64,000 bases of DNA from Heterodontus francisci (lineage: Eukaryota), in the NCBI RefSeq assembly GCF_036365525.1, contig NC_090411.1:26920819-26984818 (forward strand), read 5' to 3'. The first letter of the stretch is position 1. Every line of letters starts with the position of its first letter. The notes under the pieces were generated by a model that saw only the letters and a list, made by a program, of their open reading frames with translations, was not told the origin of the DNA and did no database searches. The position numbers were made by a program, and so were the translations under genes. Below are positions 1,708 to 56,798 of this stretch, piece after piece.

Positions 1708-2234
1708 TATTATTCAATTGAATTTATCTTGACTATTAGTGAAACAGCCTTTTTCCCTCATCTCCAATATTTCTACAATTAATAGATGAAAAAGGTACGA
1801 TTTTATTTAATGTTTTCCCTATGATTTTTCTTGCAAGTATTTTCCCACAACAGTGTCCTGATGATTAATCTTCAGTTCCTGGAAACTGATAGCCACTACA
1901 ATTGAGACCTTTTGCATCTGCTGGGCACTTTGGGGACTGGAGATTGTTCTGACAAGAATGAATAATATTTAATTTTACAAGGTGTCTGTTTCCTACTTTA
2001 CACCATTGACTGCACCTGAAAAGTACTTGGTTGGTAAAGTGATTTGGGACATTCTGAGGTTGTGAAAGTCGCTAAATAAATGAAAATCTTTTTGTAGTTT
2101 ATTTATTTATTACTTTTGCCCATCTATAAAGGGACGCACTTTCTTGCTTTTATCTGATGACACTGGCAACCAGCCCAGCTGTCTCCTGAAAGAAAGACAG
2201 GAATAGGCCTGAGGGGCAAGGATGGGAGGGGGTT

Positions 2235-2510
2235 GTGGGTGTCAAAGATGGCGGCGCGGCCGTGGCAACACAAGCACACAATTGCCCCGCAATGGCGTCA
2301 CTTCCGTTCACCTGATGCCACAACGGCCCCCTCTGCAACGCAACTTCCGGAAAGATGGTGGCGCCCATGGACTGAAAACGCTGGAAGGATCTGGAAAAGT
2401 GGAGAAGCTTCGGTGTGGGCGCTAGCGGGGAAATACCCGTACGGAGACTGTGTGAGGGGGTCGGGGACAGTGGGTAAGGGGCGCCGTGATAACCTGTAAC
2501 GGGAGTGCGG
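2235..2510 (+). promoter_or_regulatory. HSPBP1: CpG-island promoter and probable non-coding exon 1 of HSPBP1
   Basis: Local CpG enrichment. YY1-type AAGATGGCGGC (2245-2255), ETS/CRE composite CGTCACTTCCG (2296-2306), ACTTCCGGAA (~2343). Candidate donor GG|GTAAGG at 2474. The next exon has an acceptor 17 nt before the ATG. Confidence 0.7.
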
Positions 2511-2519
2511 CCTATAATT

Positions 2520-2740
2520 AATAAGAGAAAGTGTTGGAAATTCTCAGCAGGTCTGGCAGCATCTGTGGAGAGAGAAGCAGAGTTAATGTTTCAGGCCTGC
2601 GACTCTTCATCAGAACTGGCAAAGGTTAGAAATGAGCACTGACCTGAAACGTTAACTCTGTTTCTCTCTCCACAGATGCTGCCATACCTGCTGCCTATTT
2701 CCAGCATCTGCAGTATTTTGCTTTTATTTTAGTTTATTAT
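2520..2740. mobile_element. Inverted (head-to-head) pair of Penelope pLTR-like fragments
   Basis: ~2523-2630 is the reverse complement of the tail family and ~2636-2730 is the forward copy. Flanks GGCCTATAATT (2509-2519) and GGCCTGTAATT (2741-2751) match at 10/11. Confidence 0.7.
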
Positions 2741-3321
2741 GGCCTGTAATTGTTTGGGGGAGGGGCGGCCATTTTGAGGCATGTTGTTGATGGCAGGTGT
2801 GAATGTGAGTAGCCGGTATTTCAGCCCTGTGTGCTGGTAATTCAGCTTCCTAACGGCCTGGGTGGGGGAACTATCACTGGAAGTGCTGTTTACACAGAGG
2901 TGCCAGCCTCATGGGGAGGCTTGTGACAAAGAGGGGGGCAAGTTAAAGGTGTATTCTGACAGGTTGATCTGTCAGAAGCATCAAAGTAGCACATCGCCTC
3001 CACACTGAGGAGTGTTCAAACTGAGCTGAATGGATTTGGGGGAACTAACCTTAAAGCTAGAGTTATTCCATTCAGGAGGCTAGGTATCACAATTGGCTGA
3101 GACTGGCCTGAATGGATGACTATCATTGTTTGAAATCAGGGAACACTTTTTCTCACGAGGTAGTAGGTATATTTTCCTTTCTTGTGCTCCATCCATGGGT
3201 TACTAAAGGCCCAGGCAATACAGATGAAAATCTATCCCATGATTTGACCGATGAGGATTCAGTGAGGGCAATTCAGTGTAGGACTGGGTATCTGGACCTG
3301 AGAAGGAGCAAGCAAAAGAAT

Positions 3322-3715
3322 TCTGAGAAATTGGGTTTTTCATTAGGAGATTGAAGGGTGATCTGGTTGAGGTGATAAGATGTCAAAAGGATTTGATTGG
3401 GTCGATAGAGAGAAACTTTTATCTGGGAAATCTAAAACAAGGGGCTATAATTGTAAAACAGGAGCTAGGCCATTTAGGAGAAAGCTCGGAAGGTAGTAGA
3501 AAATCTGGAACACTGTCCCCCTAAAAAGCTGTGGATACTACGGGGCAATTAGAGTGATTAAGGCTGAGATCGATAGATTTTTATTTTGTGTAAGGGTATA
3601 AAGGGAAATGGAGGAATGAAGGGTAAATTGATTTGAGATACAGATCAACCATGATCTAATTGACTGTTGGAGCAGGCTTGAGGAGCTGAATGGCTTATTC
3701 CTGTTCCTGTGTTCA
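3322..3715 (+). mobile_element. Degenerate CR1 LINE 3' fragment
   Basis: Similar to the CR1 ORF2 end and 3' UTR of the better copies (GGCTGAGATCGATAGATTTT...GAATGGCTTATTCCTGTTCCT). Confidence 0.65.
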
Positions 3716-8810: not shown

Positions 8811-9482
8811 ACAGGTACCAAGTCCGAGAAGCAGCACGTATTGAGTTTAGTTACCCGTGAATGGATTTTAAAACCTGGGGGGAAAAAAAGTGAGTTATTA
8901 GATGATTTGCAAGGGTTGTCTCCATTACTCTAAGGAAGGGTCTCTGCCTGAATCATTAACTTGTCTTTCCAAATGCTGACAGACTTGCTGTCCATTTCCA
9001 GTTTCCAAATTTCATAGGACTTAGCAGGAGTAGGCCATTCGGTCCTTTGAGCCTGCTCTGCCATTCACTAAGATCATGGCTGATCTGGTTGTGGTCTCAG
9101 CTCTGCTTTTCTATCTGCTCCCCATAACCATTGACTCCCTTGTCTATCAAAAATCTATCTATCTGAGCCTTGAATAAATTCCAACGTCTGCAATCTATTT
9201 GTTTTATCTTCACCCGAGATCAGCACAGACTAGGAATCGGGCCAGTGAGCTTCTGGATTATGTTGCTGAGTTAAATCCTGCTTTGCCAACTAAGCAGCTG
9301 GCAGGGGAAGGTGGGGGTGGTGTGGGATGTCACGCCATTTTCCTCTTTCCCTAGCCCAATGATGCAGAGGTTGCCTGCTTCTCCGTGTGGTGCATGTTTT
9401 ACTGCCATTTAATAATGGTTCATTTCTCTCTCTCTCTCTCTCTCTCTCTCCTTCCCTCCCTCCTCCCCCCCCCCCCCCCCAG

Positions 9483-9669
9483 CGCAGACAGTGGCTGCAG
9501 GATGCGCTGTCGGATGTGTTTCATGGACAGTTGGATGAACTGAAACAGATTAAAGAATGCCTCCAGATCCTGAATGCAACATCTGAGGGCGACACAAATG
9601 AAGATGGGAGGAGGTGCAATGCACTCGATACTGTAGCGGATTTGTGCGAAAACCTTGACAATGCAGGAG
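9483..9669 (+). CDS. HSPBP1: HSPBP1 coding exon 2
   Basis: AG at 9481-9482 after a (TC)n/poly-C tract. RRQWLQDALS...ADLCENLDNAG. Donor GTAATT at 9670. 187 nt, phase 0 to 1. Confidence 0.95.
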
Positions 9670-25108: not shown

Positions 25109-25409
25109 ATTAGAATATATATGTTTGTGTGTCTATTATAGATATATGTAGATACATATATATTTGTGTGTGGATATGATAGATATATTGTACATTGATA
25201 CATATATATTTTTATATATTATAGAGCAATATAGATAGGGCCCTACAAATTTAGTCAAATTTTACAAATTATACGGGCACGGTATTTTAAGAATCATGAA
25301 TTTCACGATTTCAAATATTTAAATTATAAATTTCAGAGTTGCAACAAGCCATGAAAATTATCTATTTAAAACAAAAAAAGTCCAAGGAGGTTTCTGGTTT
25401 CAAATGGCA

Positions 25410-25415
25410 TTTATT
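25410..25415 (-). terminator. Candidate poly(A) signal of the CGGBP-like gene
   Basis: AATAAA on the - strand about 64 nt after the stop codon. Confidence 0.5.
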
Positions 25416-25478
25416 GTATATTCAAAAACTATTGTAAAATGTTAACTATAAACAGTTCATGTTCTTTACTCACTGAAA

Positions 25479-27479
25479 TCAGTGGTTGAATGTGAGCATG
25501 GAGCAACCTGCAACTGTCTCTTTCTTCATTCCCTGTCTCTGCGCTGTGAACACCTGTCCACGTTTAGACACAGCTCTCTCCACATTCGCTGAGTTTGTCG
25601 GAATTGTCAGACAGCGCCGTGCTAGCCTTGCAAGGTGGGGGATTCTGCATTCCACAGAGTTCCAAAACTGCAGCACAGGCAAAGTAGAATCCGCTTCCTT
25701 TGCAATGCTTTTATAAGCAGGAATCTCCAACCTACAGTTCTTATCAAAGCCAGGAATTGCATGAAACAAGTTTAAATCCACCATCAACAGGTTTATTTGT
25801 GCAGGGTCAAAGATACGCACAGCTTTCAGGAATGCTGCAGAAGGTTGTTGAAACTTCTGAGCCACATTTTCTTCACTGCTTGACTGTTCCCCGTAGCAGT
25901 AATATCGTTTGAGCTTCTTTGCCATGCAAGAAAACACTTGTTGAGCACAGGCATTTAATTCAGTTTCATCAGAGTGTTGTTGATTTGACTGTGCTTCAGC
26001 CCAGAACAGTACATCCATTACTTTATTGTAAGCTTTGTGGATTGTGACATGTCGAGATTCAAACCAAGTGATTAAATCCATCAGTTGTGTAACATTCTTG
26101 GCAACAAACTGAACCTCCTCATTAAGCTGAGCATCGTTTAGAAGGGTTACAATGTCTGTTAAAACCTGTATTTTTGGTGTCAGTGTGAGCTCTTCTGAGA
26201 TGAAGTCTGAGTAGTATTTCAGGTGAGCTGCATGATATTGTACTGCCCGAAACCAAGAATTGCAATGTGTAATTACTGGCTCTGGAGGAAGGGCTATGTT
26301 TTGTTCCCCAATTTCAACTGCATTTGCAATATGTTGCCTGTATCGAAGCTTGCGACTAGGGCAGTGTTTGAAGATCTCTTTAATGTAGCTGACCAGTTTG
26401 TCGACATTACCAAACTCGCTTTTCCACAGCTCACTAATAAGAGAAATTATATGTGCATTACATATAATATGGACAACATTAGGCATTACACCTTGGAGCA
26501 CAGATTTGAAAGATTTTGTTAAATAAGTTGCATTGTCACTAACGAAAGCAGACACTTTGTTGAAATCTGCACCATATTTTGAAACGGTTTTGAGTATCGC
26601 TTGGGAAACTGTGGTGGAATTAACAGCTTCTAAGTAGACGCAGTTTGCAAGCACTGTTGTTAGCTTTCCTGATTGTACATCTTCAGCTTTGTCAGACATA
26701 AAATCAAATAAAACATGCAGCACATAGTTGTTTTGCTCATTGGTGGACTCATTACAAACAATTGCAAAAGACTCACATGCGTTAATCTGAGACTTCATCT
26801 CCTCACAATGTGTAGCAAAAACCTTCGGTAGGTAGTCTTGTCGTAGTTTATTTGCACTTGGCAAGCAACCACCATTTTGCACATTACGTTGAATGAATAC
26901 CCGCAGCTTTGGGTGATCAAGTTTTTCCAATGGTATGTTGGCGCTTGCAAAAGCATCCACAAGTTCCATTGTAAGCAGCTGACGATTTTCTGAGCTTTCA
27001 GTCGACTTCTTAAAAAGAGATGAAACAGTTTGTTTTTTTGCATGTTTGTTTTGCAGCCGTGCGGTGTCAGATGCTCTCTTCCCGCAACCCCTGTTTTGCA
27101 CATTGCGTTGAATGAATAGCCGCAGCTTTGGTTGATCAAGTTTATCCAACGGTATGTTGGCGCTTGCAAAAGCATCCACAAGTTCCAGGGGAACGCACTG
27201 ACTGTTTTCTGAGCTCTCTGTCGACTTCTTAAGAGATGAATCCGGTGCTTGTTTCTTTGCGTGTTCGTTTTCCAGCAGTGCCGTGTCCGATGCTCTCTTT
27301 CTGCTGCGATGACTTTCGGACTCTAAATGCCGCTGAACCGTTGCCCGCCGTGTGTGATCCAGCGAAACATTGCAACTCGTACAAAACAGTATTCCACCAG
27401 CAGCATGCAAAATTTGGCTTCCAAATTCCTTCACTCGATGTGCTGCAGTAATGGTTGTGGCCTTTTTAGATTTGCTCAT
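25479..27479 (-). CDS. CGGBP1-like hAT-transposase-derived protein, 666 aa (BED zinc finger, duplicated DNA-binding segment, RNase H-like domain, hATC-like C-terminus)
   Basis: RVKEFG..GGILFCTSCNVSLDH..HLESESH and ANIPLEKLDHPKLRVFIQRNVQNGGCLPSANKLRQDYLP closely match human CGGBP1 (RVTEFG..GGKLFCTSCNVVLNH; ANIPLEKADHP..VKNGGSIPKSDQLRRAYLP). hAT motifs VSDNA, CNAH, QFW..PHLARLA..IPTNSANVER are present. Confidence 0.9.
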   Translation of the reverse strand: MSKSKKATTITAAHRVKEFGSQILHAAGGILFCTSCNVSLDHTRRATVQRHLESESHRSRKRASDTALLENEHAKKQAPDSSLKKSTESSENSQCVPLELVDAFASANIPLDKLDQPKLRLFIQRNVQNRGCGKRASDTARLQNKHAKKQTVSSLFKKSTESSENRQLLTMELVDAFASANIPLEKLDHPKLRVFIQRNVQNGGCLPSANKLRQDYLPKVFATHCEEMKSQINACESFAIVCNESTNEQNNYVLHVLFDFMSDKAEDVQSGKLTTVLANCVYLEAVNSTTVSQAILKTVSKYGADFNKVSAFVSDNATYLTKSFKSVLQGVMPNVVHIICNAHIISLISELWKSEFGNVDKLVSYIKEIFKHCPSRKLRYRQHIANAVEIGEQNIALPPEPVITHCNSWFRAVQYHAAHLKYYSDFISEELTLTPKIQVLTDIVTLLNDAQLNEEVQFVAKNVTQLMDLITWFESRHVTIHKAYNKVMDVLFWAEAQSNQQHSDETELNACAQQVFSCMAKKLKRYYCYGEQSSSEENVAQKFQQPSAAFLKAVRIFDPAQINLLMVDLNLFHAIPGFDKNCRLEIPAYKSIAKEADSTLPVLQFWNSVECRIPHLARLARRCLTIPTNSANVERAVSKRGQVFTAQRQGMKKETVAGCSMLTFNH

Positions 27480-27599
27480 CCTGCCTTTCCCTCTCCTCTG
27501 CTAACACTTGACAATGCAGTTGGAGGCCCTCCCTTAGCTGCCAGTCGGCGAGTTATGTCAATCACTAAAACATCATTTTAGGCAAGCGGGCCCATTTGA

Positions 27600-28242
27600 C
27601 GGAGGACGTGAGATTTCATGGTCCCTGACGCATTTTTCACGGCGCTGAATGCGGTCGGGCGCTAATTTTGTTCTGGAGCAATGCTATTGCTAAGGAAGGT
27701 GCAGAGGCCGCAAGATGGTCTGGCCCCGTCCCCTGCCCTGGCGGCGGCGCGGTGCACTGTAGGATACGGGAGGACCGAGGCGGGCGGACATGTTGTGCGG
27801 AGGGAGCCGGAGTGAGTGAGCGATAGTAAATAGCAACGGCGAGTGAGAGGCGGACACGGAGCTTCGGGCAGACAGACACTTATCCCGCCTTTTCGCTACT
27901 CCAGCTTCCCCTCCTCGGTTTGCTCGCACTCTCACCTCCTTCCTTCTCCATCTTATTTTACCCCCCCCCCCCTTACCAAAAAAAAACTTGCTCCCGCTCC
28001 CTCGCTCTCTTTGTGAGGCCTAGCGGAAATAGGTCAATCCCCGGGCTTTCCTGGAGAGCGTAGCCGGGCCAGCTGAGGGGGTAAGCCGGGGTTGCTGAGG
28101 TTGAGGCTGGAGGGGGATCAGACAGGCGCCCAATGCAGCTTCTCGGCAGCCGATTGCTTCGCATTTCACCATCTCCATCCAACCAGAAGCACCTCCATTA
28201 TCGTTTGGCGGTGGGAATTTACCCACTCACACTGATTTAAAA
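27600..28242. promoter_or_regulatory. PPP6R1: CpG island: PPP6R1 promoter and non-coding exon 1, probably bidirectional
   Basis: Dense CpG, GC boxes (GAGGCGGGCGG ~27777), YY1-like CAAGATGG (27711). Candidate + strand donors GTGAGT (27812), GTAAGC (28081), GTAAGT (28243). No other comparable CpG island lies between here and the PPP6R1 ATG exon. Confidence 0.75.
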
Positions 28243-28549
28243 GTAAGTCTCTGCCTCATAACTTTGTTATATTGACCACTTCACTCCTGTGAAAACCCCA
28301 TTATTGTCAACCTGTAGATACTTTCACTTGTGTGTCTGTGCCAGCTGTAGTATTAACTGTTAGAAGTGGTTGGAGGAGGGGGAAGAGGGCTTTTTAAAAA
28401 ATATAAAAATGATTGTATGATGCACTTACCACAACTCAATGGTTCAGTGAATTGCTGAGCTGTACAGATTGCAAAGGTCCCTGTGTAATAAAAGTAATTG
28501 CACTCCAAAAGTAGTGGAAAAGAATTAATGTGCTGTGTAAATTCAGATT

Positions 28550-43869: not shown

Positions 43870-44096
43870 ATGTTTTGGAAGTTTGACCTTCACACGACAT
43901 CGCACATTGACACGCTCCTGGAACGTGAGGATGTCACGCTCTTTGAGCTTATGGACGAGGAGGACGTCCTACAAGAGTGCAAGGCTAACAACCGCAAGCT
44001 GGTGGAGTTCCTGACACGGCCGAACAACATGGAGACACTTGTTACCTGCATTACCATGGAGCCATCTGATGATATGGACGAGAAAGTTCGATACAA
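43870..44096 (+). CDS. PPP6R1: PPP6R1 (PP6 regulatory subunit 1, SAPS family) first coding exon
   Basis: Acceptor AG at 43862-43863. [44 protein letters not shown]. Donor AA|GTAAGG at 44097. 227 coding nt, phase 2. Confidence 0.93.
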
Positions 44097-46262
44097 GTAA
44101 GGAGTTGTTCCACAGGGCCTGATCCTAGAGGAAATATATGTTTGATAAAGAGTTAATCATTTTGTGAAATTTAGCTCTGGATTGGAAGAGGTGTTCCCTA
44201 TTTTTTTTTTTAAATCTCCCCTCCTTTGTTGAAGATGTTGAGACCTGATGGGGTGCATTCCACAAGTACTGGCAACCCTTCAGTACGTCATTCACTGGAC
44301 CATTTTTCATTTATTAGCTTCTACAGAGCATGATGGCAGGCTGTCCAACTGTATCATAACTGATATCCCTCTTCATCCAGTATCCACACTAATTCATTTT
44401 ATAGCAGGTGTTAAGCGGTACTAATTGGAGCCTTATGTTTTTTCTCTCCCAGCCCACAGCTATACCATTATTTGAAGTGGAATCTGCTGGCTCCACACAC
44501 AGAGGGGATCAGATCTTGGTCTACCTTGGTCTATGTGTCTCTAATCCACACTAGGCAGTACATTTACTGACTGAGTAAGGTGGTGAAGAGTGCAGTTATT
44601 TTTCCTCCTCACATACGAGGATTGCTTTCCCACTCAAACTGAGAGTGAGAGCACAGCAGCTGAGGGAAGTATGGATTTGCATTCATATCTACGCATGAGT
44701 CTTTATATTAAAGAAAACAATTTTAATATGTGACCTAGTTTGATTCTATATAGGCTGTCTTGAAGTCAACACATTGCACCATCTCTGTTGTTCATTTCTA
44801 GGATCTCAATTATGTAGCTTCTAACTCTCCTCCACCCCACTACCACCTCACTCTGGCAATGTACAGACTTTTAAATCCTGCGCCTGCTATCACTGTTTTC
44901 AGAGTTTTTTTGCTTTCCCCTCTTTACTGCCAATTTTCTCTGCATTATACTCCTTTTCAGGAGGTGGCATCTCCCTCCGGTTTCCCAATTGTCAGGCTTC
45001 CTTGCCGACCTCCCTTAAGCTTGCCTTGTTTTCACCACGACCTTAACATCCATAGATTCTGGTTCTCTTTTAAACCTAGCAGATGCCGTGCAAAATGGAC
45101 CCCAGCGCCTTGCTCTTGAGTCTCAATAAACAAAAGACCTTGTCCGCCCACAGCTTGTGCATATGCAAATATCAGATCTCCAGCGTTAGCACATTCGTGC
45201 ATATATTGGGGCAAGTCGCAGCCAGTAGTGAGGTAGCATGAAATTCGTCTGCTGTTCGAAGTTGACTGTTCTGTGGTTAACGTTGCCTCTTTTTTTTTAA
45301 AAAAAGAGGTTACATTGCCATGATGTCTGTTGAGTGGTGAATTCCTGTCTAACTCAGTTTCTTAAAATAACCCAGTATCCTGCGAGCTCTACATTATAGC
45401 AGTAACCAGCAATATTAGAACAGGCCTGCATTTTTCTTTTGAAAGAAAACCCCAGAACTGCTAACTGTTCGCCCGAGGATTGTAGACAGTAAAAAAACAG
45501 CCTTAACATTCAGTCTGAATACATCTTTGTTCTTATGATTTGAAATCATCTGAGCAGTTTTAATGTATTTTCTCCCTAAATTTTAATCCTTTTTTCTCCT
45601 GTAGTAACTGGTTGTTGCTAAGTATGACTTCACAGCCACCAGGCAAACTCTCATGTTTCGTCCACGTGCCTGCTGTTTCACATGTGACTCTGGACTATGA
45701 GCATCAGTAGGGTGCTTGACCAGAAAGATATGACCGCTTAGCCCAAGCTCAATCCTGCCCCACTGGCAATTTCAAACAGGAAGTCACTGATTACTTATCC
45801 ATGCTAGCTGACATTGTAAATGGTCCCTGCTCCTCAACTACTATTCACCTCCCTTTCAAAATCCCTGTCATTAATTTCCTCACCATCAAAAAAATCTGCC
45901 CTTAACCCCTTTCTTTGATGATAACTGCTCCATCTACAAGCTCCCTTTACGCCCTCAAATCCTTCCAGGTGTTCTCTTCCAGATCAGTGCCCATCTTTCC
46001 CACAACTCCGTTTGAATCTTTGCTATCTGTTTCCACCCTCCCACATCACTGACCCAGCCCTAACCAGAGCCACTAACAATGTTCTCTGTGACTATGCGTA
46101 GAGGTTTATTCCTCCTTACCATTAATAATGAGCTTACTTTATTCTCTTTTTGCTCCCCCTACAAGAATGAATTTAGAGGAAACAAGTGATTATTTTTGTC
46201 ACTGATGTAATGCATTATAAAATATGACTTTATTTTCCTTGGTTTCGATTTGCATAATTCTA

Positions 46263-54307: not shown

Positions 54308-56798
54308 GAAATGGCAGACCAATTAAATACATACTTTGGTTTTGTCTTCACAAAGCAGGACGCAAATTACCTCCCAGAAATGTTGGGGAACATGTGGTCT
54401 AGTGAGAAGGAGGAACTGTATGAAATGAGTATTAGTAGGGAAATTGATGGGAGTGAAGGCCAATAAATCCCCAGGGCCTGATAATCTACATCCCAGAGTA
54501 CTTAAGGAAGTGGTTCTTCAAATAGTAAATGCATTGTTGGTCATTTTTCAAAATTATATAGACTCTGGAACAGTTCCAACAGATTGGAGGGTAGCTAATG
54601 TAACCCCATTATTTAAAAAAGGAGGCAGAGAGAAAACGGGATTATAGACCGGTTAGGCTGACATCAGTAGTGGGGAAAGTGCTACAGTCCATTATAAAAG
54701 ATGTAATAGCAGAGCATTTGGAACGCAGTGACATGATCGGACAAAGTCAGCATGGATTTACGAAAGGGAAATCATGCTTGACAAATCTACTGCAATTTTT
54801 TGAGGATTTAACTAGTATAATAGATAAGAGAGAACCAGTGGTGTGGTGTATTTGGACTTTCAGAAGGCTTTCGATAAGGTCCCACATAAGAGATTAGCAT
54901 GCAAAATTAAAGCACATGGGATTGGGGGTAAGGTACTGACATGGATAGAGAATTGGTTGGCAGACAGGAAACAACGAGTAGGAATAAACGGGTTTTTTCC
55001 CCGAGCGGCAGGCAGTGACTAGTGGGGTACTGCAGGGATTAGTGCTAGGATCCCAGCTATTCACAATATATATTAATGATCCAGATGAGGGAATTAAATG
55101 TAATATATCCAAGTTTGCACCTACACTGTTTGGCATTTTCTTCTCCCTGCTGCTCTCACATGCGTTCAAGTCTTCAGAAGAAGAAATTTTCCTCCACACA
55201 AGATCAGGTGGCAGGTTGTTCAACCTTGCCCGCCTAAGAGCGAAGACCAAAGCACAGAAAGTCCTCATCAGGGAACTCCTCTTTGCTGATGATGCTGCAT
55301 TAGCATCTCACACTGAAGAGTGTCTGCAGAGTCTCATCGGCAGGTTTGCGGCTGCCTGCAACGAATTTGGCATAACCATCAGCCTCAAGAAAACGAACAT
55401 CGTGGGACAGGGCGTCAGAAATGCTCCATCCATCAATATCGGCGACCACGCTCTGGAAGTGGTTCAAGAGTTCACCTACCTAGGCTCAACTATCACCAGT
55501 AACCTGTCTCTAGATGCAGAAATCAACAAGGGCATGGGAAAGGCTTCCACTGCTATGTCCAGACAGGCCAAGAGAGTGTGGGAAAATGTCGCACTGACAC
55601 AGAACACAAAGGTCCGAGTGTATCAAGCCTGTGTCCTCAGTACCTTGCTCTACGGCAGCGAGGCCTGGACAACGTATGTCAGCCAAGAGCGACGTCTCAA
55701 TTCATTCCATCTTCGCTGCCTCAGGAGAATCCTTGGCGTCAGGTGGCAGGACCGCATCTCCAACACAGAAGTCCTCGAGGCGGCCAACATCCACAGCTTA
55801 TACACACTACTGAGTCAGCGGCACTTGAGATGGCTTGGCCATGTGAGCCCCATGGAAGATGGCAGGATCCCCAAGGACACATTGTACAGCGAACTCGCCA
55901 CTGGTATCAGACCTACCGGCCGTCCATGTCTCCGCTTTAAAGACGTCTGCAAACGCGACATGAAGTCCTGTAACATTGATCACAAGTCGTGGGAGTCAGT
56001 TACCAGCGATCGCCAGAGCTGGCAGGCAGCCATAAAGGCGGGGCTAAAGTGTGGCAAGTCGAAGAGACTTAGCAGTTGGCAGGAAAAAAGACAGAAGCGC
56101 AGGGGAGAGCCAACTGCGCAACAGCCCCGGCAACCAATTTTTTCTGCAGCACCTGTGGAAGAGTTTGTCACTCTAGTATTGGCCTTTATAGCCACTCCAG
56201 GCGCTGCTCCACAAACCACTGACCACCTCCAGGCGCTTCTCCATTGTCTCCCGAGACAAGGAGGCCAAAGAAGAAGAGCAGATGACACAAAGCTGGGTGG
56301 AAGTGTGAGCTGTGAGGAGGATGCAGAGAAGCTCCAATGTGATTTGGACAGGTTGAGTGAGTGGGCAAATACATGACAGATGCAGTATATTGTGGATAAA
56401 CGTGAGGTTAAACATGAAGACTGAGGGGTGACCTGATCGAGGTGTACAAGATTGAGGGGCATGAACAGGGTGGATAGGGAGCAGCTGTTCCCAGTTGAAG
56501 GGTCAGTTACGAGGGGTCACAAGTTTAAGGTGAGGGGCGGGAGGTTTAAGGAGGATTTGAGGAAGAACATTTTTACCCAGAGGGTGGTGACGGTCTGGAA
56601 TGCACTGCCTGGAAGGGTGGTCGAGGTGTGTTGCCTCACATCCTTTAAAAAGTACCTGGATGAGCACTTGGCACGTCATAACATTCAAGGCTATGGGCCA
56701 AGTGCTGGCAAATGGGATTAGGTGGACAGGTCAGGTGTCTTTAATGCATCTGTGCTGACTCGATGGGCCGAAGGGCCTCTTCACTATTATTCTGTGTG
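54308..56798 (+). mobile_element. CR1 LINE fragment interrupted by an RTE insertion
   Basis: KSPGPDNLHPRVLKE, DWRVANVTPLFKKG, SQHGFTKGKSCLTNLL, ISKFA|ADDTKLGG, and 3' end FTQRVVTVWNALP. Confidence 0.9.
55120..56277 (+). mobile_element. RTE-clade LINE 3' fragment (same family as 22019-24769) nested in CR1
   Basis: PTLFGIFFSLLLSHAFKSSEE..LFADD..SWQEKRQ is nearly identical to the first copy. Tail CCAAAGAAGAAGA. GCA is duplicated at 55117-55119 and 56278-56280. Confidence 0.93.

Follow-up and report, generated by a model that had tools for sequence, protein, structure and literature searches.

Does the long open reading frame (ORF) of an old transposon copy in the shark Heterodontus francisci encode a protein of the host, or has it stayed open by chance? 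The stretch analyzed, hereafter the window, comprises 64,000 nucleotides (NCBI RefSeq assembly GCF_036365525.1, contig NC_090411.1, positions 26,920,819 to 26,984,818), and the element in question is a hAT DNA transposon copy recognized by its family match from terminal inverted repeat (TIR) to TIR at window positions 25236–27664, minus strand. Its intronless ORF of 666 codons (25479–27479, minus strand; an identical protein is present in NCBI/UniRef) runs without a stop, just as an earlier reading made without database searches (hereafter the sequence-only reading) had claimed. We found that this ORF is likely a real, young domesticated gene, which arose from an old CGGBP-type hAT copy and would encode a host DNA-binding protein.

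The element is old, and its ends are worn. It terminates in TAGGGCCCTAC at 25236 (3' TIR, 25236–25255, minus strand) and in TAGCGCCCGAC from 27664 (5' TIR, 27645–27664, minus strand, decayed by changes mostly towards G/C); the TIRs pair at 9 of 11 positions, and the flanks agree at 3/8, leaving no recognizable 8-bp target-site duplication (TSD), both as previously read; among 28 other copies whose two ends could be located, 21 agree at 6/8 or better. Those duplications, together with the family-level ends (TIR TAGGGCCCTAC...), are of the hAT kind. The family, which the sequence-only reading overlooked, is large and dead. Thus, a DNA search gave at least 1,821 candidates in the genome (40 scored; the others 84–89% identical over the main match), a search with an intact outside relative as query gave at least 3,546, with near-complete frames in just three of the 74 scored, and the exact 22-base ends occur 279 times, the reversed control not once. 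From 60 loci we obtained 50 distinct copies (10 being duplicates), of which 45 served as the neutral control after setting aside L041 and L042 (partial, with unreliable alignment), the window copy itself, and L002 and L015 (long frames); being chosen by similarity, the control copies favor the less decayed ones. Copies were aligned pairwise to L002, divergence was counted from the commonest letter per column, and counting tests with the calibrated control, not likelihood models, were used. All 45 control copies carry stops or frameshifts (6–23 each, mean 13 (12.7), with 7.1 frameshifts and 6.0 stops), at a mean non-CpG divergence of 6.5%; pooled, they show 3263 nonsynonymous (N) and 1239 synonymous (S) changes, with a dN/dS of 1.00 at non-CpG sites (range 0.71–2.28). 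The tree is star-like and the closest pair among 49 copies is 91% identical (most candidates being unscored), indicating that the family spread in an old burst and that none of the sampled copies is young. Subfamily structure was considered as a confounder among the first 48 copies and rejected, as changes in common stand at background level. A 9-bp length variant near reference column 1208 divides the copies about evenly; it differs between the window copy and its sister and is therefore probably recurrent slippage, not a subfamily mark.

That sister was reached only through an in-frame tandem duplication of 219 bp in the window copy, also overlooked before, which covers the dimerization domain. 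Unit 1 (27084–27302, minus strand; 73 codons) is a partial extra linker plus Hermes-type dimerization/DNA-binding domain, and unit 2 (26865–27083, minus strand) is the intact Hermes-type domain. A junction query and a pattern allowing 2 mismatches found the junction at 2 places only, the other being L073 on contig C27, which has its own TSD (7/8) and groups with the window copy at a tree support of 0.976. The two have 15 non-CpG coding changes in common (11 N, 4 S), including D243N, D247N, D250N, and D279N, on a branch that evolved neutrally and spans about 13% of the family age. After the split, L073 decayed at a dN/dS of 0.95, its frame broken by 11 in-frame stops and numerous frameshifts, and took up three large insertions. 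Because the D-to-N changes sit on a neutral branch with a decayed sister, the first catalytic aspartate was lost before selection began; judged from that branch, catalytic death preceded selection on the window copy. Moreover, the presence of these changes and the duplication in two copies implies that a defective parent was mobilized in trans.

The motif readings are in line with this order. Active hAT transposases require D180, D248, R318, W319, and E572 (PMC6027215), and the window copy fails at the equivalents read as N243, H405, and C406, the first catalytic D being assigned from family conservation and its place on the first core strand of the predicted model. The sequence-only reading correctly took N243 and N247 as loss of the first Asp motif (26730–26753, minus strand), to which N250 is to be added; the copy is indeed catalytically dead, the losses in this motif being inherited from the parent, all three common to L073, and predating selection. 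H405 and C406 likewise stand as read (THCNS), R405H being CpG decay at a codon retained in just 7/45 dead copies. ERAVS had been counted as decay and turned out to be the ordinary family reading (relatives P0004 and P0005), and the poly(A) signal is present (AATAAA, 25410–25415, minus strand) but occurs in 33/41 dead copies covering the site; both, being ancestral to the family, carry no weight as evidence. Retention of C33, C36, H51, H57, D315, C340, H343, and E634 was confirmed.

Measured against the dead copies, the window copy has kept its frame. It is free of stops and frameshifts, against an expected 12.7 (P about 1e-5), and its three ORF indels (219, 3, and 3 bp; private or inherited) all keep the frame, whereas indels in the untranslated regions (UTRs) are frame-blind. 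Over the whole ORF, 49 N and 36 S changes give a dN/dS of 0.52 (p=0.005), below 45/45 controls; on its own branch, with the changes common to the sister removed, 36 N and 32 S changes give 0.43 (p=6e-4 vs dead copies; p=0.021 vs L073), and with CpG sites included the ratio is 0.42 against 0.91. Silent and UTR divergence is at or above that of the controls (pS 0.073 vs 0.065; UTRs 0.18 and 0.12), so that the copy cannot be young and does not sit in a cold spot. The constraint is unevenly distributed. In the N-terminus and BED zinc finger (27300–27479, minus strand; L31, C33, C36, H51, H57), the own branch holds 1 replacement in 111 N sites and 8 silent changes in 45 S sites, and the CGGBP module, with bounds taken from short CGGBP1-like proteins, has a dN/dS of 0.13–0.15 (p=1e-4) and a pN under all 44 comparable controls. 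Unit 1 is relaxed, under at most moderate constraint: its dN/dS of 0.57 is non-significant vs controls, and its 10 N changes fall short of the 22.6 predicted from the elevated local rate (p=0.002), which draws on a leader that may itself not be neutral. At unit 2 begins a stretch of 71 unchanged residues; in dead copies the corresponding length is 17–47. The C-terminal 441 codons have fewer replacements than in all 45 controls and no disablements vs 8.9 expected, and the hAT C-terminal dimerization region (25479–25715, minus strand; PF05699, aa 598–657, with E634) has fewer than any control copy; own-branch ratios of the insertion (0.63) and the C-terminal part (0.30) are non-significant. Collectively, these counts place the window copy under purifying selection after its insertion.

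The copy has also been kept elsewhere. Runs labelled as a second organism, B, contain 0.33–0.42 of the sequence words, and its contigs from two studies are 1–2% diverged from the window copy, with 2 differences over a stretch holding 17 window-private changes; as those private sites span the cluster, at least two of the three D-to-N changes are common to B. The contigs contain unit 1, cover 1,332/2,001 ORF bases without gaps, and pass the 5' TIR by 69 bases into unique flank (contig 26922–27733). By these contigs, organism B holds an orthologue of the window copy at the same site. The sequence-only view of an old, immobile, dead hAT copy under selection thereby holds, with no near-identical copies (best pair 91% of 49), a dN/dS below control, and an orthologue in B. 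Pieces from an organism C (share 0.09) were rejected as an orthologue: one matches exactly over 120 bp in a part of the window free of private changes, 5 private changes are missing from another, and the pieces look like near-ancestral paralogs; one organism C contig continues in unlike sequence before 27805. Pieces in its run X15 (window 25894–26967) are nearly identical to the commonest letters of the family, hinting that organism C may carry much younger family copies.

The insertion site lies at a presumed promoter. A CpG-rich zone with the top observed/expected CpG ratio of the window (200-bp windows passing from 27151 to 28220) lies over the 5' end of the element and the presumed PPP6R promoter; the start codon, previously placed about 120 bp from the island, is inside it. 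On the plus strand follow a donor-like GTAAGT (28243–28248), presumably the end of a non-coding PPP6R exon 1, the first coding exon of a PPP6R-family gene (MFWKFD..., 43870–44100), and SAPS exons immediately beyond the window, and upstream lies a Fes1-domain exon of HSPBP1 (about 9471–9665, plus strand). The neighbors named by the sequence-only reading are thus the right ones, the paralogue being one that we take to be PPP6R1 from its adjacency to HSPBP1, an arrangement of the human genome. Variants of HSPBP1 and PPP6R1 are linked, in agreement with such adjacency (PMC10888217). In the first 400 nt of the element, 15/20 ancestral CpGs are retained as compared with 266/841 (32%) in controls (p=1e-4), which fits an unmethylated germline promoter region, and the 500 bp upstream hold 33 CpGs vs at most 14 in 36 other copies. 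From the CpG retention and the position, the copy has probably captured divergent transcription from the PPP6R1-type CpG island. None of the runs containing the copy is on record as RNA; contigs from runs guessed to be RNA reach 27690 (organism A) and 27733 (organism B), leaving 27800–28300 uncovered, and one ends at 27690, at an acceptor-like CCTTAG. Between 27084 and 27664, the substitution rate is 2–3x that of controls with a strong AT-to-GC bias that fades 3' of unit 1, which fits biased gene conversion at the promoter.

Several observations weigh against a domesticated gene. The RNase-H core has a dN/dS of 1.09, and reference aa 158–598 as a whole 0.64 (p=0.25), so that beyond the N-terminal module the case consists of the open frame (P 1e-4) and the low pN. 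The low BED ratio comes partly from a raised, GC-biased silent rate (weak-to-strong (W>S) 30:10 vs 504:713), and five upstream ATGs lie within the 5' leader of the element. Short pieces of sister copies, too, carry NCBI gene annotations, and the annotation of the window ORF is therefore no proof of a gene. The coding differences listed between A and B number only nine (4 N, 5 S; p=0.07), with 11 further differences unlisted, so that current selection and a full frame in B are tentative. Finally, the copy was selected for its open frame; among about 2,000 candidates, the number expected to be open by chance is about 0.02, low but above zero.

This last point leads to the reading that the copy is a neutral relic and that its frame, as one out of some thousands, happened to remain intact, perhaps aided by low methylation at the CpG island. 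The 1,821 to 3,546 or more candidates, the better CpG retention, which removes some CGA-to-TGA stops, and the two further copies with long frames speak for it; yet the chance of no disablement is about 1e-5, the missense deficit at non-CpG sites is independent of it (p=5e-4), neither silent nor UTR rates are lowered, the deficit tracks domain boundaries, and the sister has decayed, which together make it very improbable. Hardly credible, to our judgment, is a constraint acting on DNA or RNA (a PPP6R promoter or enhancer, or biased gene conversion) instead of on protein: it would account for the best-conserved part adjoining the promoter and for GC-biased substitutions there, but not for BED silent sites changing faster than in controls while replacement sites did not, nor for the non-coding leader, which lies nearer the promoter and is the most diverged part (28/154, five private indels). 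Just as little credence is due to a late-inserted member of a lineage still active as transposase, with its low dN/dS inherited. In its favor, the tip of the window copy is the shortest in the tree (0.033 vs median 0.070); the catalytic core of the copy, however, is the least constrained part, the catalytic D was lost on the parent branch, and the decayed 5' TIR and TSD, the lack of close relatives among the 49 sampled copies (best 91%), and the star-like tree do not belong to an active lineage with intact ends and young near-identical copies.

What deserves somewhat more consideration, while still improbable, is that selection was real but is past, a dead promoter-driven copy having been favored as a dominant-negative brake on its own family during the invasion and drifting now. 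Catalysis was lost prior to selection, the oligomer-forming C-terminal half was kept open, the family is extinct among the sampled copies, and all 4 replacements between A and B lie in or near unit 1. Own-branch silent divergence, however, amounts to about 87% of the family age, and drift over a long time should have left stops, frameshifts, and BED replacements, of which a single non-CpG one is found vs about 7 to 19 expected. A young domesticated gene thus remains the reading that we prefer.

The protein of such a gene would be a full-length hAT protein of the CGGBP type. A PF05699 match (E 5.5e-12) and likeness to Hermes by profile and fold (predicted model with a pLDDT of 86.9; Z 30.0, rmsd 3.9 over 444 residues) account for the BED finger, RNase-H fold, helical insertion, and dimerization region. 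The CGGBP key residues are present: the zinc ligands C33, C36, H51, and H57, L31 two residues before the finger, and what we take to be the two prolines meant in PMC8097297 (P183/P190 in unit 2, P110/P117 in unit 1). As a proxy for the CGGBP class, 23 matches include 10 proteins of sister copies to which NCBI gives the name CGGBP1-like and a coelacanth CGGBP1; the nearest named relatives are coelacanth proteins, one of them that CGGBP1. The subterminal repeat CCGTGAA/TTCACGG fills seven columns in the family ends and none in the ORF; in the window copy one of the seven is intact, beside the 5' TIR. Since BED domains of Hermes bind subterminal repeats (PMC10368747), we predict by analogy that the protein binds CCGTGAA/TTCACGG. 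A predicted complex of unit 1 with unit 2 scored 0.42 (best control 0.01; contacts agreeing 96% across runs; partner pLDDT 62), in a benchmark in which 51/78 solved complexes and 2/108 mismatches reached the mark and 5/78 and all 4 passing mismatches stood at 0.60 or below. Hermes forms an intertwined dimer through this same domain (PMC10368747), so that the pass may just show likeness, and the model gives at most a faint hint that unit 1 may pair with unit 2.

In sum, a hAT parent lost its first catalytic aspartate and gained the 73-residue duplication before the split from the sister, and one of the two sites, that at the PPP6R1-type CpG island, was kept intact by purifying selection. We infer that the dead full-length protein is expressed divergently from the island, is translated, as selection on amino acids implies, and forms an oligomer via its kept C-terminal half, as which it would act on TTCACGG-type sites. 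It is predicted to be unable to cut DNA and to be a transcriptional or chromatin regulator of the host at such sites; death on arrival would make steady expression harmless, and the protein may at first have been a brake on its own family and a host regulator today. A more detailed order of events is rather unlikely in its entirety, and we put it forward tentatively: death and the doubling of the domain would have arisen inside a non-autonomous parent that was copied to two sites; the promoter-side copy would at first have served, constitutively, as a dominant-negative trap for its own family, in which the additional domain engaged the native one or active subunits; today it would read relic TTCACGG ends as a regulatory network already in place, the same burst having given a C2H2 fusion gene.

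That fusion is one of two further long-frame copies. L002/L066 (P0002, P0034–P0036; C32 29468–29493 kb), with a dN/dS of 0.41 (p=4e-4; module 0.28), forms, in the NCBI annotation, the final exon of a C2H2 zinc-finger gene with several exons, joined at an AG within the BED region; its catalytic E has become A and its final 19 codons are cut off by a stop. It is likely a second domestication, and since conservation extends to the BED codons upstream of the acceptor (2 N, 8 S), it may also occur in a stand-alone form. L015/L065 (P0003; C266, a 20,952-base contig) is a weak candidate: its dN/dS is 0.63 (p=0.04), and its BED finger is broken, with a stop at codon 4, among tandem repeats and with a W>S excess. 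Its CpG-rich upstream DNA consists of tandem repeat and was therefore not counted as another promoter capture. Outside the shark, the commonest residues of the family share 84–85% identity with coelacanth proteins and 68% with a turtle protein (P0004, P0006, P0045, P0050, P0065), a pattern suggesting that the family may have been transferred horizontally. No other shark species is among the matches of three protein searches (33, 23, and 3 matches; scoring in the first extended to 8,000 candidates only, and the searches left out longer fusions). Three alligator proteins of the same clade (P0016, P0019, P0020; about 45% identical) have AE for DE and VKCNSW for TRWNSW, alike in two species, and are perhaps a parallel dead domestication. 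Within the window, a non-LTR retrotransposon reverse-transcriptase ORF (931 aa, PF00078; 22070–24865, minus strand) lies 370 bp past the hAT 3' end, and a fragment 93% identical to it is found at 55117–56222 (plus strand).

Domestication of hAT elements is a known process. CGGBPs are mostly truncated (<200 aa) and/or have introns, and non-amniote ones are independent hAT domestications (Yellan et al. 2021, PMC8097297). The window copy resembles the latter, notably the coelacanth set, in its conserved BED and Hermes-type module, key residues, non-syntenic position, and lineage restriction; it differs in being full-length and intronless, with a doubled Hermes-type domain, and in that its selection can be measured against dead siblings, whereas lack of orthology hampers selection tests on CGGBPs according to those authors, in whose available text no shark is mentioned. 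ZBED1/4/6 and Buster-derived genes are likewise full-length, with BED, catalytic fold, helical insertion, and dimerization region, and some are lodged in or beside housekeeping genes, as here (Hayward et al. 2013, PMC3606216). Unlike ZBEDs, which are old with a conserved DDE triad (PMC3606216), the window copy lost the first D before selection and comes from the CGGBP-type clade; no ZBED protein is among the matches of the three protein searches. With Hermes transposase (PDB 6DWZ, 4D1Q, 8EDG) it has the fold and the aligning CxxH, TRWNS, and ER motifs in common, whereas the equivalents of D180, R318, and W319 are N, H, and C and the ends are decayed. THAP9/THAP9-AS1 is also a domesticated transposase at a predicted bidirectional promoter, but of the P-element superfamily with a lncRNA as partner, in place of a hAT element and a housekeeping protein gene (PMC9326536). 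A literature search, closed journals lying outside its coverage and a shark entry in the supplement of PMC8097297 being possible, turned up neither a description of this gene nor one of any shark CGGBP; within that search, a variant that is full-length, dead before capture, with a doubled dimerization domain and a paired natural control appears undescribed.

With dead siblings, a true sister, and an orthologue in a congener at hand, the order of events becomes measurable: catalytic death, insertion at an open promoter, and selection on the DNA-binding module. The locus would extend CGGBP-type genes to cartilaginous fish, in a patchy shark-coelacanth-turtle family and with a predicted motif, and it bears on how transposases become transcription factors, that is, whether prior inactivation permits capture by a strong promoter.

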